This document shows positions 6,470-60,810 of a stretch of DNA of 64,000 bases, one piece after another. The translations under genes were made by a program, and so were the position numbers. This DNA comes from Rhynchobatus australiae (taxonomy: Eukaryota): positions 31,071,345 through 31,135,344 of the forward strand of contig JAUZTB010000017.1 of NCBI GenBank assembly GCA_034780895.1. The letters are read 5' to 3'. Position 1 is the stretch's first letter. Every line of letters starts with the position of its first letter. Under the pieces are notes generated by a model, which saw only the letters and a list, made by a program, of their open reading frames with translations, searched no databases and was not told where the DNA came from.

Positions 6470-7420
6470 CATCACTATTTTCCCAACATTCTCCTGTCAC
6501 CTCCTGTGCAAGTTCCTCCTCTTCCTTCCGCATCTCCTCTACGTTCTCATCCTCTTGGATGGTTTCTAGCAAAGCCTTTGCCTTTGAGGTGCAGTTATAA
6601 AGTATGCATCAGATGACAATGAAGTATCTAGCTCTCTCGGGGATGTTGCAGGGTACCTCTGAGTAATGCGGACTCCTATTCTCATCCTAAATGCTGCTTC
6701 TATTTCTTCATGGTCCAGTATCTACCATTACAAAGTTTCTCTACACTTGGGCTATGCTCTGCCTCCTGTGTATTCTCCTAGTCCCCCAAGAACCATCACT
6801 CCATGCATCAGCTGTATGGTGGATCCTCGAGAATAAATGAGTCGCACAGACTTCACAGGCCATGAGAATTCTATTTTCATGGCTAGACATTTAGGCAGTG
6901 ATAGTTTGCAATACATATGGAGTTCCTGGTTCTCAAGGGTCCCTAAAGTAGCACATGAATACAATTTGACTTCTTGAATCTTCAGGAATGCTGCATTCTT
7001 TGGAAATTCACTTGATTGCTATGATGGTCCTTGCTCAAGGGAAAGGTGACAAATCACCTCTTAGAGTAGAGAGTATCAGTAATCTCCCCAATCCTGTGGA
7101 ATGCAGGAAACTGGATATATGGGATAAGTGTGCTGTTGCTGTTTGGAATAATTAGAAAGTTAAGAAATACAGGGTGATAATGGCCTTGACCTCTACAGGC
7201 AGAGTAGTTAAGTCATGATCGAGCTCAGCCTGTGGAATGTCAATATCATCATGGACTTGGAAGTCCTTAGCCTCTGTATCTGTTGCTTATTTGAGAGTTG
7301 TAGGTAGGGATAGGGTCGACTGACTGGAGCCCTTCTTCCCCTCCTTCTGCAGAGTCCCTGGACATGTCTGTCCTGCTTTTGACACCTGACCAGCACACCA
7401 AGAGGAACTGCCACTGGAGC
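6470..7420 (-). pseudogene. PIF/Harbinger DDE transposase (HARBI1-like, DDE_Tnp_4) pseudogene
   Basis: Minus-strand motifs in canonical order with stops and frameshifts: PYPYLQLSNKQQIQRLR (N-terminus, ~7260-7320); AAFLKIQEV/NCIHVLL*GP (cf. AGFP.VQGAIDCTHVAI.AP, ~6935-6995); NYHCLNV* (cf. GFHSLNVQ); WP..SV(H)DSFIL (cf. YPGSVHDSFIL); WFLGD (cf. WLLGD.GY); PERARYFIVI*CILYN (cf. PE.V..IV..CC.LHN); acidic tail EDENVEEMRKEEEE. Confidence 0.85.
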
Positions 7421-21590: not shown

Positions 21591-22559
21591 GTTACCGTAC
21601 TTTTAATTGTTTAGTGAAAGGGGTACTGTTATATTTGAAAAGATATTTCTGCAGCAAATCTTAATGGTTATTCTCTGAACTTGATGCATATCAGTTGATG
21701 AAACTTCTGGCTTGAAGGAAAGGATTCCCACCTGGAAATGCTTTACTTGAGTGTGTTAATCAAAATGTTTCCTTTTATTTTGGATATTTTACACTGGTGG
21801 CAACTTTTTGAACTTTGGTCATTTCCCACATGTACTGATCACTCACTTGGTATGCAGCAAACAAAATGGCAAAGCTCCATGTTTGGTTTAAGGCTTAAAT
21901 TCTCAGTAGATGATTCAATAAGAGGGAATTCATAAAGTTTGGGAAGCTGAAATGTGTTTTATTTAAGAAGTTCTCTGCAGTATACATAGAAGCAATAATT
22001 GTTGTATACCTAAAATTTCAACCAATATTGTAAACAGAATAAAGTCAGAAGGCTTGGTTGATCAGGTTTACAAAAATTAAGTTTAATGAAATACTATCTT
22101 GTGCACGTCAGCTCTGGTTAACCTGTAGAAGATATCGCATGTATGCAATAGGTTATTGCTGAGCTGCCTCTCCCGATGTTGGTTGTGTAGAGTGTTGAAC
22201 CGTGGGAATTATTTCCCAAGTTCATTGGGGTATTTTGGGCAAGGGCTTCTTGAAAAGCAAAGAGTTTTCACCCCTTCCTACAGACATTTGAATGTCGAAA
22301 AATACCACAGCAAAATCTGGTCCTGATTTCACACAGCAGCTGGAAGTCACTGGATAGGGATTAAGGGAGGCTAAATTTGGTAGTGCCTAAAAATGGATAC
22401 ATGGATTAAAATGTAAAATGCGCAATTTATATGCATTGGAACTGCTACAACCAACATTTAAAATTCATCCTGCCTGCTTAGTTTGATGATTCCAGCATCT
22501 TGGAAGTGCTGATTGCATTGTGCCTTGCCTTGTTTCTTCAGCCTAGGACCCAATTTTGT

Positions 22560-23585
22560 GAGAGGTCATCATAAGTTCAAAGGCAAATTGGGTTCAAAAT
22601 TGCCTTGGTAATTAAAGGAGGTTTGATGGCAGAGGGTTGCTTTTGTGATTGGAAGCCTGTGCCACAGGGACTGGTGCTGGGGCCCTTGCTGTTTATTATA
22701 TACATTAATGATTTGGTAGTGAATGTAGGAGTTATGTTTGCAAGTTTACAAATGACACAAAATTGGTGATGGATGTTGATAGTGAAGAGAGTAGTTTTAG
22801 GCTATAGCTGGATATTGTTAAGTTGGTAAAATGGGAAGAGCAATGGCAGATGGAATTTAATCCTGATGTCTGAGGTGATGCATTTTGGGAGGACTAATTA
22901 GGCCAGGACATAGTGCATGATAGGGCCTGAAGGAGTATGAGGAACAGGCGTGCAAATCCAAGGATACCTGAAGATGGTTAGGAAGGCATATGGGATACTT
23001 GCCTTCATAAGCCAGGGCATAGAACATGAAAGCAGGGAGGTTATGGTTGAAACTTTATAAAACATTGGTTAAGCCACAACCAGAGTAATGTGTGCAGTTC
23101 TGTTTGCTACACTGTAGGAAGGACATGATTGTACTGGATAGGCTGCAGAGGAGATTCACCAAAAATGTTGCCTTGGATCGAGCATTTCAATTTTAAGGAG
23201 AGACTAGGCTGGGTTTATTTTCCAGGGGGACCTGAAAGAGGTGTATAAAATTAAGAAGGTCATAGATAAAGTGGATTAAAGAAACTTTTCTCCATAGCAA
23301 ACGTATCTAAAAACAAAGGGCATAGGTTTAAGTTAAAGGGTCGAAGGTTTAGAGTGTATCTGAGGAAGACTTTCCCCTGAAACATGTTTAGAATTTAGAA
23401 TGCACTGCCTGGGTGGGTGATGGAGGCAGAGATCTTAACAAAATTTGAGAAATATCTAAATAAGTATTTGAATAACTCGGGCAAAGAAACCCATAGACTA
23501 AATGCTGTTAAATGGCAAGATTACAGATGAACATGTTGGGCCAAAGAACCTATTTCTATGCTATGTGTTGAGATGATTCTATGAC
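22560..23585 (+). mobile_element. CR1 (HER1-like) LINE 3' fragment
   Basis: PQGLVLGPLLFIIYINDL, W.MEFNP...EVMHFGR.N, LYKTLVKPQ.E.CVQF motifs; ends in a TTCTATG-type tail. Confidence 0.9.
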
Positions 23586-23639
23586 AGTAAGAGTTGATTT
23601 TTAAATTCCTGATGATTTGGGATCAGGGTAGGACTCAAA

Positions 23640-25445
23640 CCATCTGAAATGCATCCTTGGCATACCAATAGTTTTCTCAGTGAGACCGATGACCGTGAGG
23701 CTGATTGCACTCCTGGCCTTCATTGGTCATGTTCCTTGTGGGTGTCATCCCCCATGTTTTCACCCAGTATCCACTATGTCTGAACTGCCAGCCAATAAGT
23801 TTTGGAGGTATGAAGAGATCAAGTTAGCATGCCAAAGGGTGAAAGCATTATAGCAACTCTCAAGAAATATTTTTGTTGGGTTGGATAATCATGTTCCTTT
23901 AGTACATGGATAGTTGATGTGATTCACCTTCCTGATAAACTAACCATTGGTCATCTGCCTTTTCTACAGATGTGTGACCGACTGAGAGATCCTGTAGGTA
24001 TATCAGGAGATCCCTGGAAGANNNNNNNNNNNNNNNNNNNNNNNNNNNNNNNNNNNNNNNNNNNNNNNNNNNNNNNNNNNNNNNNNNNNNNNNNNNNNNN
24101 NNNNNNNNNNNNNNNNNNNNNGATGAAACCTGGCCACTATGTCCAGCAGGCCAGAGAGCTTGTTCTTGCATGCATCAAGTATCTCCGATCTTCAACTTGC
24201 GTCCATAGACAACGCTGTTCAAAGGGCGATTATCCTTGACCTGTACACCTTGTATAGTGGGTATGGTTGCTGCTCTACTGCTGTTCTTGTTATTAACCGT
24301 GAAGGCTCCTGTTTCCAGGTACCACCACTAAAGTCTGCAGAAGTGCAAAGATAAAGTTCTAGAACAGTGAAGGAGATTGAGGTGTCAGATTTAATTGATG
24401 GATGTGGCTGCTTCTGGTACCGCTCAAAACACAGGGTTCGGGATAAATTAATAACGCAGTCATTAGTTGGGTGTGTGTCTACAATGACGTGCATGGACAA
24501 CTTTAATTAGTCATTTGTGCGGCATAGAGTCACACCCTGCTTCCCTGGTGCAGAAATGATCCGTGGCTGTACTCCTTCAGCCAGAAGCCAAATCCAGTGA
24601 CCTTTGTTTTTGTTTAGTCTTGGATAAAGTATGGTTTTATTTTAAGTTGCCGCTGCACCCTTGAGTGAGTTATTGTAGACTGGTTCAGGTCTGCTGTGGT
24701 GAAGTGCTGGGGATGGACTCGGGTGAGAGGAAACTCTGTGAACAGCTCTTTAACTGGGCTGGCACGATGAGCTGTCAGTTGGTTGTACTAACACTGTACT
24801 CTGCACAGGATGAAGTGATGGTGATTAATACCAGCATGAACAAGTTAACCTATCAGTTTTGGGGGCTTCAACCATTGCTCATGTAAGCTGATCCTAATGG
24901 ATAACCAGGAGGTTCAGGTGGCTGCTGTCTGCTCATGTTGAAGAGCAACACTCTGTTGAACTAACTAGTGAAAGTGCAACTGATGCGTATAGTAGTAACA
25001 AGTTTACACTCCCAATCTCCCCCTGCACTTGTCCCTCGTTCAATATTGTGGAGGTGGTAGGCTGCTCTAAGATGGTACCTGGAGATTTCCCTGCCCCAGT
25101 TCTTTTTAAAACAAAAAGCTCGAAGAAACAAACACCAAGTTGATGTTTAGTAAATGAGCTGCTGGTGTAGAAGCACAATGTCGTCGACTTTATGGGGCCA
25201 GGCTGGAATCGCCACTTTGGGAGGCAGGTTCTACCGAGACTGGGGCTTCATACAGGTGTCACCAATGTCAAGGCTGGGCTGCCAGAGCAAGCTACTGCTT
25301 AAGTGAAGCATTTGGGGTTTGCTCGGGGAAGAGCTGTTGTGTAAACGTTTATCTGCACATCTCCCCCCGATGGGCCATCGTCCAGAGCTGGGAAGTCACT
25401 ATCAAAGGTGTGCGCCAGTTTGGGTTAACACGTTGATGAGTATTA
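23640..25445 (-). other. Unclassified CpG-retaining island with decayed coding-like frames (possible DNA transposon or endogenous viral remnant)
   Basis: Lies between a CR1 end (23585) and a Penelope fragment (25450); visibly richer in CG than the flanks; long minus-strand frames broken by isolated stops; no match to repeat families I recognise. Confidence 0.4.
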
Positions 25446-25449
25446 GATA

Positions 25450-25770
25450 GACACGCAAGAAATTCTGCAGCTGCTGGATGTATCTGGAGCAATACACAAA
25501 AAGTGCTGGAGGAACTCAGTAGGTCAAGCCGCATCCATGGAAGGAAATAAAGTCGACATTTCAGGAGGGGAGGGGGAGGATCACACGCAGGCAGGCGATA
25601 GGTGAGTTGAGGTGAGGAGGGAAGGTAGGTGGGAGGGGGAGAAGATGTAATAAACTAAGTGATAGGTAGAAGAGGCCGAGGGCTAAAGGAGGAATCCGGT
25701 AGGAGAGGGCAGTGGACTATGGAATAAAGGATGGGGAAGGAGAGGAGATGGGCAGGTCATTAAGGCAGAT
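25450..25770 (-). mobile_element. Penelope-like element terminal fragment
   Basis: AAAGTGCTGGAGGAACTCAGTAGGTCAAGCCGCATCCATGGAAGGAAATAAAGTCGACATTTC is the reverse complement of the 60730-60805 segment type, followed by the purine-rich body. Confidence 0.8.
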
Positions 25771-27169
25771 ATTTAACGATGATAACAATGAAAGGGTCAT
25801 TTATTTGAATGGCTTCACCTTTGACCCTTGTTAAAATTGTGGTTCCTTACTTTTTGTATTCCTTATTGGCAACCAGGTGATTGATACCCAGGAACGTGGT
25901 TTCTATGGTTTGAATGTGTTTCTTGAAGGATCTCTTGCAGCAGGACAATGTCCATGTTAGTGTTGCAGAATTTCTTTGGAAATAAGTCATATTTCTCTAT
26001 GAATAAGCCTTCGCTAAAGTAATCTACTCTTGTCACTGATACTTTTTTTTAATCTTTATGAATGTGGTTCTAACTTGTTCTTTCAGCCAGAAGGTCTCCA
26101 CCTTGGGAGTGTTAATCAACAGGTTTATCAGGTCAAGCAGGCAGAGTGCATGATGGATGCTACCACCCACCCAGACTGCAAACTGATCTGCAAAGTTCAT
26201 TTCCACTAAAAGTTTTTTCAAAGTTATTTAAATAATGTTCTGGCACAACTTCTGTGAAGAAAACTTAAGAAGAAGACATCTTTTTAAGGCTGCAATATTT
26301 CTACACAGATTTTCCTGTCAGCTCTTCAGTGCCTGGCCTGTACTCTTATGTTGATCTCACTGACATTTTAGGGAACGCAGGAAATTTGCATGTACTTGTT
26401 TTTAAAGCATCACACTCTTTTTATCTTGCTCTTAATGAGCTGTCATCATATTGAAATTGGTAACCCATCACTCCTTGAGGAATTTCCTACAGGCAGGCTG
26501 ATGTGTTGAGATTAAATGTGGAAGTCAAAGAATTGGTGTCACCCTCCCAACTCTATCCCATCATGCAAGTTAAAATTTCCTCTGAAGGACAAGAAGGTCT
26601 CGCCCACTAGATTTACTTTGTATTGAAGAATTTAATTCATCACCACCAAACAAAATGCAGAAGAAAAATGCTCAGTCTAATCCAGCAGAGTTCTCCATCT
26701 TCATATTATGTGGAATTTTTATCCAAGTACGATGGAAAAAAATCAGAAATGCACATAGCAAATGGGTAGCAAGAGTAGATCTTGTAGGTGCGGAAAATAA
26801 GGAAGAACATCACCTGTTCGCGAGTCATGTGATGTACCGTTGAATAAACAGCTAAGCTTTTTTGTTTTTAAAGTAAACACTGTGCTCAGATTTTCTGCTT
26901 CTGTGAGATGCCAGTAGGAATTTGGCACCAGTATAGTTCTAGGCAAGCAGAATGATTCAACACACTGCTAAGCGTTGTGCTTCAGTAACAAATAACAGGG
27001 AATTGTCAGGGTAAGTGCAGAAAATGAGCCTAAAAATGGGCTGGGCAGGTCATTTCTTTATGTTCCTGTTGTACTGATCAAACTTGTTTTACAGTGGGAC
27101 AATTAGCAAGAGCAAGGTAGCGGAGAATAGGTTGATACAGAAACAAAAGGCATAATCAAACAGTTTTTC

Positions 27170-34169: not shown

Positions 34170-35540
34170 CATTTTCTGGGCTATGAAGGTCATTGGCAAG
34201 ACCAGCATTCATTGGCCATTCCTAATTGCCCTTGAGAAGGCAGTGGTGAACTTTTGAACAGCTGCAGTCCTTCTGGTGACATTAATCCCACATAATGTTG
34301 TATTGGGGAGGTGGTTCTATGATTTAGATTCACAGACAATGAAACACCTACGACACATTTCCAAATCAAGATGGTATGTGACTTGGAGGTGAACCTACAG
34401 GTAGTAGTGTTCCCATGCACCTGCTGCACTTGTCCTTAATGGAAGAGCTTGCAGCTTTTGAGAGGTGCTGGTTAAGTATCTGGGGTCAGTAATTGTAGTA
34501 CATTTTGTAAATGGGACACCATGCAGCCATCGTGCCCAGGTGGTAGAGGGAATGAATATATTTGGGTGGTTGATGGGGTACTATTCAAGTGGGCTGCTTT
34601 GCCCTGGATGGTGTGGAGTTTCTCGAGTTGTTGGGACTGCACTCACCCAGTCTGTTGGAAGGTTTTCCATCATGCTCCAGACTTGTACCTAGCAGATGGT
34701 GGATAGGCTTTGAGGTGTCAGGAGCTGATTCACTCCCTGCAAGTTTCCCAGCCTCTGACCTCATGTAGCGACTGTATTCGCGTGGCTGGTCCAGTTGAGC
34801 TTTTCCTCAGTGGCGATCCTCAGTTTATTGATGTTGAGTAACTTGGTGATGGTGCTACCATTTAAATATCAAGGATAGGTGATTAGACTCTCTTGTTGGA
34901 GATGATTATTGCCTGATAATTTTGTGAGGCAAATGTTACTTGCTACTTTTCAGGCCATGCCCAGATACAGCAAAACTGAGACAACGTTCAGACATGAACC
35001 GCTTTATTTGGTGACAAGTTCTGAATGGGGAAAACAAATTATGAAATCATCAGTGACGTCCTCATTCCTGACCTGTTGGCTGTTTAATTGCCCACCACCA
35101 TTCATGGCTACATATGGTAGGACTGTAACACATCAATCTACCACAGGTAGATTAGTGAGGATGAGGTCAAGTAGTTTTATCTCTCATGCTGGTTTGTGCA
35201 CCACCTATCACAGACCCAGTCTGGCAGCTATGTCCATCAGAACTTGCCCAGCTCGGTCAGTGGTGGTGCAACTGTTGGAGGTAGGCATTGAAGTTCTTTA
35301 CCCAGGGTATGTTCTGTGCCCTTGCTACTTTCTGTGCTGCTTCCAAGTGTTGTTCAAAATGAAGGAGCCCTGATTCATCAGCTGAGGAAGAGCAGTAGGT
35401 GATAATCAAAAGAGGTTTCCTTGCCTATGTTTGACCTGGTGCCACAAGACTTTGTGGCTTGGAGAAAATGTTGAGGACTCCTACCACTTGTACACCAATG
35501 TGCCATCATCTTTGGTGGGTCTTTCCTGCCAGTGGGACAA
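34170..35540 (-). mobile_element. CR1-group LINE, second family, 3' fragment
   Basis: Begins with GGCAAGACCAGCATTCATTGGCCATTCCTAATTGCCCTTGAGAAGG (reverse 3' tail); shares sequence with 47975-48760 and 60930-61450; more 5' LINE sequence follows after an internal deletion. Confidence 0.75.
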
Positions 35541-35542
35541 GA

Positions 35543-36430
35543 TAGAATCAGAGTTGTACAGCATAGAAACAGGCCCTTCAGCCCACTGCATCTATGCTGA
35601 CCAGCATGCCTATCTATACTAATGTCACTTGCCCACATTAATTCCATATGACTCTATGCCCTGCTCATTCAAGTACCTGTTAAGATGCTCTTTAAGTGAT
35701 GTCACTGTTCCTGCCTCCACCACCACCACCATCACTGGCAACTCATTCCAGCTACCAACTAGTTTGTATGAAAAATTTACCCCTCGGATCTCATTTAAAC
35801 CTTCTACTTCTCACCTTAAACCTATGCCCTCTAGTTTTAATCTCCCCTACCATGGGAGATGTTTGCTGGCTATGTACACTTTTCAATTTTATATACCTCT
35901 ATCATGTCACCTCTCAGCCTCCTTTGCTCAAGGGAAAACAGACATAGCCTACCCAATCTCTTTTGAAACTCAAGCCTTCCAATCCAGGTAACATCTTTGT
36001 GAATCTTTTCAGCACCGTCTCTAGCTTAATCACATTCTTCCTATAGTGTGGTGACCAGAACTGCGCACAAATCTCCAAGTCTGACCTAACCTACATTTTG
36101 TACAACTGTAACATGACATCTCAACTCCTATACTTAGTGCCTTGACTGATGAAGCCAAGCGTGCCATACATCTTCCTCACCACTCTGTCTACCTGTTTGC
36201 ATTTTCAGGGAACTATGCACTTGTATCCCAAGGTCTCTGTTCAACAACACTCCCCAGAGGCCTGCCATTCACAGTGTATGTCCTGTCCTGGTTTAACTTC
36301 CCAAACTGTGTCATTTCACACTTGTCCGAATTAAATTCCACTCGCCATTCCCTTTCCCACTTTCCCAGGTGATCGATATCCTGCTGTAACCTTAGACAAC
36401 CTTCATTGTCCAGTGTACCACCAACAGTTC
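35543..36430 (-). mobile_element. CR1 (HER1-like) LINE 3' fragment
   Basis: ORF 36213-36461 GCLRLQQDIDHLGKWEREWRVEFNSDKCEMTQFGKLNQDRTYTVNGRPLGSVVEQR is the CR1 RT C-terminus; tail at 35543 (TAGAATCAGAGTTGTACAGCATAGAAACAGGCCCTTC). Confidence 0.92.
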
Positions 36431-52619: not shown

Positions 52620-52835
52620 TGGAATGACCCCACGATTTTGAGGGACCTGAGCATTCTCATAAGTGAAATGCATGCTAAGAGGGTGATCCTATGTGCCAGA
52701 GAAAGCCAGGAGATCCACTGGGCCCATCATTATATAATCCTGAGAGGAGGTGGATCCAGCTGTCTCCTTGTGATATGAGAATCTGTAGTCGTACAAGTAA
52801 TGCACAATGAATTTCATGTCCTCACGTTGTCAGGA
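52620..52835 (+). pseudogene. Myb/SANT-like DNA-binding gene remnant (Harbinger partner gene)
   Basis: PRF*/RDLSILISEMHAKRVILC...S*EEVDPAVS...*C...EFHVLT parallels APRFSD.DLE.L..EV..RR.VL...WEEVA.AVS...QCRKKFNDL. Confidence 0.6.
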
Positions 52836-55419
52836 TGAACTGCCCACACCACAGACAGTTGTAGTGAGCCGCTTCAATAAAGGGATCAGGAATTCATTCA
52901 CTGTATTATGATCAATGCACGGAAGGATGTGAGCCATTATTTTTGTCATCTGGCCTCTCTCAGCTGATTACTGGTATTCATGTTGGTTTTAAAGATTGGA
53001 GTGTGGAGATGATACTTTATCTGGATTTAACAAGCTCCTTGTGAGAAATGTTGATCTTTGAGAGAGTCCATTATTGTTCCTTCAGTCAATGCCTCTTTTT
53101 TTTCTGTTGGGAGATAAGGTTGCTGCTGTTCTGTGAGACTTCCCCTGGGTAGTCTGTCTCGTCATCCTGCTTCTCTTGTTCCACTGCTCTTCAGGTTGGG
53201 CTCCAGATATGGTGCCAATGGAGCCAACGTTCTGACAATGGACTTTGAGGTCAGGGCCAAAGACTTGGGCTCAAGCAGCAGAATATCATACATCTACCAT
53301 CATGGCAGCTTTTCCCACAGCAAGTTTGGTACTCGTACATCTCATTTCAGCAAGTTGGGCATTTGTGCTAGGACTGTGAATTGGGATGAGGAGCCAGAGA
53401 AGCAGAGGGTAGCACTTATCCTCCTGGATCCATCCCTCTGGACAGTGTTGGCCCTGAAAAATGCCTGACTACTTAGTATACCTGAGAATTCCTGAAAAAA
53501 ATTGACATTGACATCGGGAAAATCTGATGACCTCTGCTACCTGAACAATCTAAGGAAAAGGTCCATGTAATGAAGGGGAAACTCTTTGGACCTTGAGTGT
53601 GATCTGAAGCTGCTTGGTCAAGTCTCCCAATGTCAGCAGTGTACCTGTGAATGGACATAGCTGCAGCAGAGTATCACCATGTGCTTCCAGTTGTTCTGAG
53701 ACCATTGAACAGCAGTTGTAAGTACACCCTAAATCTCTATGCTGACAAAGGAAGAAACGTGTCATAGTGACTGGTGATGTCATTAAAAATGCATCTGATA
53801 GTGGGATGTCTGGCCAATCCAAATGAAGAAGCCTTAGTCTTATCTACACAGGGCTCACTGACTGATCTCTCAATGACTTACTGTTGAATAGAGGTCTAAC
53901 AAATACAGTATTTCAGCCAGTCCACTTTATGTAAGAATGATGAACATCAATCCTAATTTAAGACCATGAATTTAAAAGCTAGATAATGTAACAGTTTATT
54001 TAAGTACAAGGTAAGGGAAAATGCATTTTGTCCAGAAAGAAATGTGATGAGAACCAGTGTGGCTCCAGAAATTTGAACCGGCACTTTCCAGAATGAGTCA
54101 TGTTTGCATTGGACAAAAATTCAGCTTTAGACAAGCAGTGATGATGTCATTCCCAGTGCAGTAATGAAGCATTGCAGTGAAATTAGACCATATTGTTCTG
54201 TTAGTGACAAACTAGTGGAGCCAGATTAGAATTCTATTAAGGTAAGCCCCATGCCTGCTTTCTATACATAGGGCCATCCCACTCACTGATCTCACTCCAT
54301 GACTTGAAACCACCTGTCACTCCGACGTTATCAACCCAGGCTTTGGCAGCCCAACTCTCCAACGCCATCCCCATTTTGATTAGCCCATGCCCCAATTGTT
54401 GATCACCTGCTCTTCAGCTCCCACCCCTACCTGACCACTGACATTGTCCTGACCTCCACTCCAGCCCAAACCTCTGTGCCACCCCCTCTCGGNNNNNNNN
54501 NNNNNNNNNNNNNNNNNNNNNNNNNNNNNNNNNNNNNNNNNNNNNNNNNNNNNNNNNNNNNNNNNNNNNNNNNNNNNNNNNNNNNNNNNGGCGTCCTCGC
54601 GCCTACGTTTTCCGTGTTCACCAGATCCTCCCCACCCCCCCCCCATACCCTACCCTGTCACTCTCTGATTGCTGAACACAGCCCCACCCCATTGCTCTGA
54701 ATTAGACAGCCCTCCACACCTGGTCATCTTTGGCAGTCCTCCTTCCAACCCACTCTGCATCATGACCCCTTGCCTGATACTGAGCAACTCCTGTGCCTGA
54801 CCTTAGTTGCCACTCCACTCCCCTAACATCCTCACTTTCTCCAATCTGATTCAACACCTACATGCTCACCCACCAGATTGGGCCTTTGACCATTGGCAAT
54901 CCTTGCCCCCTGCCCTTTCTCTAGTTGACCCCTTGGACCAGGTGCCAGTCCCAAGCAGTGCATCTTTATTCACGAATGCCTGTTCTGTTTGTTTGGTGGG
55001 GGGGCCTTGCCAAGGTGGCTGTTGCCAAGCATTATAGCAGCCCTGTAGAGCATTTGCAACACTGCACAATAATTTCTAGGTCTGAATGCAATCACTTCAG
55101 ATTAAGATTCAATTGGATTTGTTACCTATCCTTTTGAAATATTGCTTTATCTAGCAACAGCATTGTTTCTGGTACCCATGTTATTTTCTGCTTGCAAGCA
55201 CAACAGTCATGTCTTGCAGTGGATATGAACCTTTTCTCTCAATGTGAGACAGATGCTCTGTTCTGAGCTCTTCATGAAAGGAGGTGATGAGGCACAGAGA
55301 AGAAGTTTCAAGAGAATACACAAAACTTCCTTGAAGTGCATCATGCTCATTTACTCCTTTGAACTTCTGGCTCATGAATGGTCAAAGTGAAGGAGGAGGA
55401 CTTGGAGTGGTGTTGAGAA

Positions 55420-59890: not shown

Positions 59891-60101
59891 TTTATTTTTC
59901 CAAGTGCACTTTTCAATGGGGCTAGTGGGGGTGGGGAATTTCACCTTTACCTACATTGCTATTGCACATTAGTACATTATGGGCATGGCGGAGTTTGGAG
60001 GTTGGGCAATTATTTCCAGTAATATTTGTAGAATCGCAGAATTCTTAAAGCTGAGAAAGAGGCCATTCAGTTCATTGAATCTTTTCCAACTCCAAGAAGA
60101 G

Positions 60102-60810
60102 CATCGGGTGCTCCCGATGCAGCCTCCTGTACAACGGTGAACGCAGATTGGGTGACCGCTTCGACGAGCACCTTCACTCCGTCTGCCGCAACAGCCAGGA
60201 CCTCCTGGTGGCCACTCACTTCAATTCCACATCCTACTCCCATACTGACGTGTCTGTCCATGGCTGTCTCTACTGTCACGTTGAGGCCAGTCGCAGGTTG
60301 GAGGAACAACACCTCATATTCTGCCTTGGGAGTCTCCAAACTGATGGCCTCGNNNNNNNNNNNNNNNNNNNNNNNNNNNNNNNNNNNNNNNNNNNNNNNN
60401 NNNNNNNNNNNNNNNNNNNNNNNNNNNNNNNNNNNNNNNNNNNNNNNNNNNNNNNNNNNNNNNNNNNNNNNNNNNNNNNNNNNNNNNNNNNNNNNNNNNN
60501 NNNNNNNNNNNNNNNNNNNNNNNNNNNNNNNNNNNNNNNNNNNNNNNNNNNNNNNNNNNNNNNNNNNNNNNNNNNNNNNNNNNNNNNNNNNNNNNNNNNN
60601 NNNNNNNNNNNNNNNNNNNNNNNNNNNNNNNNNNNNNNNNNNNNTGCTCCTCCCCCTCCCCCTCCCCCCACCTTCTTATTCTGGCTTCTGCCCTCTTCCT
60701 TTCCAGTCCCGATAAAGGGTCTCGGCTTGAAACGTTGACTGTTTATTTCCCTTATTTCCCTCCAAGGATGCTGCCTGACCTGCTGAGTTCCTCCAGCACT
60801 TTTTGTGTAC
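60102..60810 (+). mobile_element. Penelope-like element 3' part: GIY-YIG endonuclease C-terminus plus terminal repeat
   Basis: CSRCSLLY...RRLGDRFDEHLHSVCRNSQDLLVATHFNSTSYSHTDVSVHG.LYC..EASRRLEEQHLIFCLGSLQTDGL is the PLE GIY-YIG end; after the gap comes the terminal repeat with a hammerhead-like motif. Confidence 0.92.

Follow-up and report, generated by a model that had tools for sequence, protein, structure and literature searches.

The DNA analyzed here, referred to as the window, is a stretch of 64,000 nucleotides from Rhynchobatus australiae, and the island under study occupies its positions 23640–25445, between two repeats (Table 1). The left-hand repeat is a LINE fragment that we, like the first-pass annotation, take to be of the CR1 type, and its 3′ end abuts a truncated transposase. 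Summed contig depth lay at a flat, single-copy level of ~3–7 across the island interior and reached thousands on both flanks. The repeat-flanked position, the assembly gap and the presence of the peptides quoted in the first-pass annotation in minus-strand frames were all confirmed.

Table 1. Features of the island and of its flanks, in window coordinates
Feature	Position	Strand	Details
High-copy LINE fragment, left flank	22580..23570 (approximate)	+	RVT_1 E 0.0045 (weak); high depth
Transposase pseudogene, catalytic-domain part	23642..23869	-	Profile ~189-281, frameshifted; 44.4 bits, score reached by 0/200 shuffles
Transposase pseudogene, middle part	23898..24019	-	Profile ~94-134; 23.9 bits, score reached by 0/200 shuffles
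Assembly gap, 100 N	24022..24121		55 letters there in the organism C contig
Probable N-terminal part of the transposase	24122..24290	-	Profile ~15-68; within the colinear 61-bit alignment; alone 14.7 bits, score reached by 13/200 shuffles
Single-copy stretch upstream of the transposase	24291..25445		Likely non-coding; GC 0.44-0.49; bulk of the CpG excess
Very-high-copy repeat, right flank	25446..25790		Summed depth to ~3e5; CpG o/e 0.51; Penelope-like according to the first-pass annotation

A protein query from the left arm of the island, the second of the quoted peptides, gave a weak second match in the genome (E 0.5) at a dispersed locus, whose DNA is colinear with 23640–23890 over ~250 nt, with indels of 3 and 6 nt. 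Searching with this locus returned 10 other places, the island among them, and one of the seven scanned loci found through it carried a DDE_Tnp_4 match (E 3e-5). A search with one intact open reading frame (ORF) of the same genome yielded 105 homologues, most of which carry the name putative nuclease HARBI1; 69 of these, together with two ORFs of the genome itself, were used for a protein profile of 71 HARBI1-like sequences. In hmmsearch this profile matched two island frames in order, at 23996–23898 (minus strand, profile positions 102–134, E 0.005) and 23805–23695 (minus strand, profile positions 225–262, E 2e-5). A frameshift-aware alignment to the HARBI1-type profile was colinear on the minus strand from 24290 to 23643 and scored 61.1 bits over profile positions 15–281 of 382; on the plus strand of the island the same profile gave 19.6 bits, and the maximum over 40 shuffles was 23.9. 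Across 68 window tiles the median of this score was 18.6, and values above 30 were obtained only in the island and in two other Harbinger fossils. At the DNA level, nhmmer with a profile of 23 genomic copies, one of which had been found with an island query, matched 23869–23642 with an E-value of 6.3e-9 over the window and, weakly, 24019–23901 at profile positions 340–459, colinear with the next match that starts at 662; it gave no match for the N-terminal piece 24122–24290. BLASTP of the catalytic part against the set of 105 proteins yielded 37% identity over 62 aa with a HARBI1-like protein of Heptranchias (E 3e-7).

Based on this colinear homology to HARBI1-type DDE_Tnp_4 transposases on a single strand, we are highly confident that the minus strand from ~24290 to ~23640 carries a PIF/Harbinger transposase gene in broken form, likely the relic of an old cut-and-paste transposon insertion that decayed without function. 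The assignment is firm for the part left of the N gap and weak for the N-terminal piece taken alone. The HMM, the frameshift-aware alignment and the 23-copy DNA profile contradict the first-pass statement that the island resembles no Harbinger family. That annotation had called the island the best candidate for something undescribed in the window and had named a clear match to a known repeat class as one way to refute this; such a match exists, and the claim of novelty was wrong. The homology was missed by Pfam alone, by tblastn with intact ORFs and by a DNA profile built from only four intact genes, and the island was absent among the matches listed for a PF13359 search of the genome.

The transposase is interrupted by frameshifts and stops throughout. 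An internal deletion of ~57 codons (profile ~132–188) joins its middle and catalytic parts, with an alignment jump of 57 positions, and the first catalytic Asp motif (profile 155–161) falls within the deletion and is lost. The codon of the second catalytic Asp is now His, and the catalytic Glu is kept; no intact transposase with a DDE triad is thus present. The segment ending in PPKLIGWQFRHSGYWVKTW is the GWLLGD motif region of a Harbinger transposase in decayed form. Profile positions 282–382, the 3′ end of the transposase, were found neither in 22500–23645 nor beyond the LINE. The relic would be unable to transpose now.

The first-pass annotation had seen in the island the fossil of a foreign element such as a large DNA transposon, a Maverick/Polinton or a DNA virus. 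The part of this that stands is that the minus strand holds the decayed coding sequence of a DNA mobile element, while a Maverick or a virus was matched in no search. A Maverick/Polinton or DNA-virus origin of the entire island, or its reading as a bornavirus-like G-M-L junction, seems highly improbable to us, although the island is present in single copy between retroelements, and a bornavirus of a skate with the G-M-L order is described in 10.1101/2023.08.23.554433. No viral family or protein was matched, and for 23640–24020 this origin is largely refuted by the transposase profile matches. The LLIYL...LVYQ peptide that had been offered as Maverick-like is an off-frame reading of transposase DNA, whose neighboring frame matches profile positions 102–134. 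Homology to the Maverick polymerase B, integrase, ATPase, protease or capsid was not detected, at a sensitivity limited by the frameshifts, and neither homology to bornavirus G, M or L nor transcription stop signals above chance were found by Pfam, PDB, protein-library and motif searches. The fish-bornavirus termination motif occurs in the window at chance level (36 sites, 34.6 expected), with one island site at three mismatches. A plus-strand frame resembling by eye a capping motif of the mononegavirus L protein was rejected after a search of PDB gave no match.

The transposase homology accounts for only ~0.55 kb of 1.7 kb and leaves the CpG excess of the island unexplained. With a GC content of 0.46 and 30 CpG, the island has a CpG o/e of 0.335 in comparison to 0.182 for the window; the top-ranked of the sliding 1.8-kb windows overlap it, a value of 0.335 is attained by one tile among 77 taken at 20 other loci, and the Poisson probability, taken as a single test, is 0.0014. 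The reported CpG richness holds on average, but it is patchy. The part to the left of the gap has a CpG o/e of 0.17 and the part to the right one of 0.38; within the latter, four successive pieces have 0.41, 0.41, 0.18 and 0.55; the peak of 0.55 is at 25101–25445, adjoining the right-flank repeat. When the window was divided into 35 non-overlapping tiles, the two of the island had 0.32 and 0.28, and two unrelated tiles had 0.30 each. The excess thus sits in 24291–25445 (23 CpG in 1155 nt) and not in the transposase. A second CpG-rich patch of the window, at 60001–60500 (o/e 0.62), lies in a repeat-like stretch.

The minus-strand frames had been described as reading through isolated stops. They are no more open than shuffled sequence: in 500 dinucleotide shuffles per arm, the probabilities of as few stops and as long an ORF were 0.18 and 0.45 for the right arm and 0.81 and 0.37 for the left arm, and in five sub-regions of the island stop counts and ORF lengths did not depart from shuffles (P 0.10–0.81). 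Pfam contained no family at E ≤ 1 for 10 read-through frames of the island, with sensitivity limited by frameshifts, and nothing for 75 ORFs of the window. The PDB sequence search gave nothing but a chance annexin match (E 0.03). Protein libraries of 5.8 billion and 1.84 billion were searched with the first quoted peptide and the most open frame (441 codons) only; the former, searched against longer proteins only, and the latter, against the 1.84-billion library, both remained without match. For 24291–25445, Rfam and viral contigs returned none, the Atlas search with a 104-aa ORF provided no lead (best 0.76, recognition 1177), and other genomic copies were not found.

The stretch 24291–25445 is likely non-coding and represents either the 5′ region of the element or unrelated old DNA. 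An unlikely alternative is a composite, in which only the DNA left of ~24290 is a Harbinger pseudogene and the 1.15 kb upstream of it has a separate, foreign source and is too decayed or novel to match; it could be cargo that the element picked up, part of another mobile element or an endogenous fragment of a virus. Such a composite is compatible with our explanation of the left part, and the upstream stretch is indeed single-copy, richer in GC and CpG than its surroundings and unlike the 5′ region of the other Harbinger fossils here. Nevertheless, its coding signal does not exceed that of shuffles, Pfam, the 1.84 billion proteins (most open frame), Atlas and viral contigs gave no matches, and 23 CpG in 1155 nt make up the whole CpG effect. 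A cargo-bearing Harbinger, with ~1.15 kb of foreign or host DNA captured upstream of its transposase, or an unrecognized viral fragment that landed against the fossil, seems to us slightly less probable again. Raised GC (0.44–0.49) is typical of 13 Harbinger fossils. About ten other Harbinger fossils have a 5′ region of 450 nt in common, which is absent from the upstream DNA of the island.

A second ORF with a Myb/SANT domain was not detected at the island. Since one shark protein carries a Myb domain fused upstream, the upstream stretch was tested for Myb as well; a Myb/SANT profile of 13 sequences had no match in 24122–25700, and its scores in and around the island were 11.1 and 16.6 bits in comparison to a null maximum of 19.2. 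In other copies the side of the Myb gene is downstream, which is here taken by the LINE. For terminal inverted repeats, expected at 25–50 bp in an autonomous PIF/Harbinger, no convincing pair was seen in 22800–26300, and no 3-bp target site duplication was detected around the still undefined ends of the element. A 17-nt terminal-repeat candidate at 25081–25097, a pattern picked after viewing the island, had 24 genome matches versus three for a control; these matches show no flanking similarity to the island, and only three of 23 are near a transposase. A likeness of 25009–25167 to the repeat at 34410–34568 was rejected, being weak (E 0.12–0.66), with a 3-sequence profile finding nothing.

DNA searches of the genome with the island returned only the window itself, confirming its single-copy status, and depth gave no indication of a copy at ≥80% identity. 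Five public runs from four organisms contain part of the right arm, with no RNA run among those listed. In organism C, one contig of 1990 nt spans 23376–25420, LINE flank included, at ~96% identity; over 23600–25420 it differs by 66 letters and five indels, and the 100 N correspond to 55 letters in it. Since this contig carries the same stretch together with the LINE flank, the insertion would predate the split of organisms A and C. Ten of the 40 differences listed (62 entries in all) are of the CpG type. In the first quoted frame the differences fall 6/5/7 on the three codon positions and are accompanied by frameshifting indels, and 6 of 18 are synonymous versus 28% expected under neutrality; for the second the synonymous share is 6 of 13 versus 26% expected, a point against decay without function, in small numbers. 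Both counts are drawn from 40 of the 62 entries. From this sequence comparison, the island appears to change near-neutrally, free of constraint. Runs X1 and X4 each have one contig that joins window 23802 to 25456 with 13 letters between, probably a chance short match beside the high-copy repeat.

These data also bear on the possibility that, instead of being a dead transposon copy, the island is a domesticated, HARBI1-like gene derived from Harbinger or the processed pseudogene of such a gene. The genome does contain several intact HARBI1-like ORFs that are conserved in other sharks and rays; the island, however, is full of stops and frameshifts and is changing near-neutrally, and its detectable DNA relatives are the decayed copies L007 (60.5% over 195 nt) and L009 (64% over 109 nt) and not intact genes. 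We consider this origin very unlikely and retain that of a dead transposon copy.

Related copies are dispersed through the genome. At least 66 matches to DDE_Tnp_4 (PF13359) were identified, and the dispersed relatives of the island transposase have ~60–78% DNA identity. The window itself contains two more decayed Harbinger fossils, at 6476–7419 and 53307–53783, both on the minus strand; the latter keeps the common 5′ region and has a weak, convergent Myb-like piece near 52640–52715 on the plus strand. The same arrangement, with Myb/SANT downstream of and convergent to the transposase, is clear in L085 and L092 and weak in L066 and L067. A dispersed repeat family of ~600 nt with ~60–70% identity occurs at window 35115–35553 (minus strand) and in L100, L103, L106 and L111, in the last of which it follows a Harbinger transposase.

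Four HARBI1-like ORFs of the genome are without stops: L019 964–2124 (+), L021 1085–2425 (-), L026 1273–2532 (-) and L029 670–1953 (+), the last split by an assembly gap. L021 is 63–84% identical to proteins of Mobula, Narcine, Carcharodon and Scyliorhinus, L026 81–85% to proteins of Mobula and Narcine, and L029 78–98% to proteins of Pristis, Scyliorhinus, Chiloscyllium and Stegostoma; an intact ORF of the genome reaches 99% identity to a protein of Pristis pectinata, which points to a sawfish or close relative as the likely host. Both catalytic Asp residues are missing in L021 and its matches, and the first is missing in L019. The four ORFs are conserved in other elasmobranchs and are candidate domesticated transposase genes of a kind specific to sharks and rays. 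Eleven chromosomal Myb/SANT (PF13873) matches, L048–L058, have no stops inside the domain and are possible domesticated Myb-like partners; a transposase fossil lies within 9.5 kb in only one of nine Myb/SANT loci with wider flanks (L085). Little-decayed DDE_Tnp_4 transposases of other clades are found on tiny unplaced contigs of a few kb (L018, L020, L022, L024, L025, L027, L028 and L044), with L024 and L025 only ~30–34% identical to the HARBI1-like set; young elements, horizontal transfer or contamination could explain these transposases.

In comparison to known PIF/Harbinger elements (PF13359 DDE_Tnp_4, vertebrate HARBI1-type clade), the island shares the colinear homology, which takes in the Glu and the surroundings of the second Asp, and the many dispersed decayed relatives within the same genome. 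It differs in being non-functional, with frameshifts, stops, the 57-codon deletion, the first Asp lost, the second changed and the 3′ end missing, and in that neither a Myb/SANT ORF nor terminal repeats nor a target site duplication were detected. The best pairwise matches of its in-frame piece, annotated ‘Putative nuclease HARBI1’ from Heptranchias perlo (P0078, 37%) and Pristiophorus japonicus (P0067, 36%) over ~60 aa, are open reading frames, whereas the island is a pseudogene. The domesticated HARBI1/NAIF1 and MSANTD genes of jawed vertebrates derive from the same transposon superfamily and, as described in PMC9392472, are intact, conserved and expressed, in contrast to the unconstrained island. 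The island is a descendant of a Harbinger transposase that does not qualify as an autonomous element; it is ordinary transposon debris and not an unknown element.

Harbinger elements use two proteins, a transposase and a Myb/SANT partner that binds the terminal repeats (PMC9179366). The parent of the island may have moved by this usual two-protein mechanism and would have inserted before organisms A and C separated. Part of the transposase would then have been lost by deletion, with drift since, and the downstream half, the side of the Myb gene in other copies, may have been removed later by deletion or by the LINE insertion.

The island matters little alone, since the genome contains dozens to hundreds of such dead Harbinger copies, and the four intact HARBI1-like ORFs are of greater interest. 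It illustrates that heavily frameshifted fossils escape Pfam and tblastn and resemble orphans until lineage-specific profiles are applied. A survey from 2022 reported no Harbinger in the elephant shark and called for checks of other cartilaginous fish (PMC9179366), and HARBI1-like proteins of sharks and rays are already numerous in database annotations. The island adds a small data point on the former abundance of Harbinger transposons in rays.
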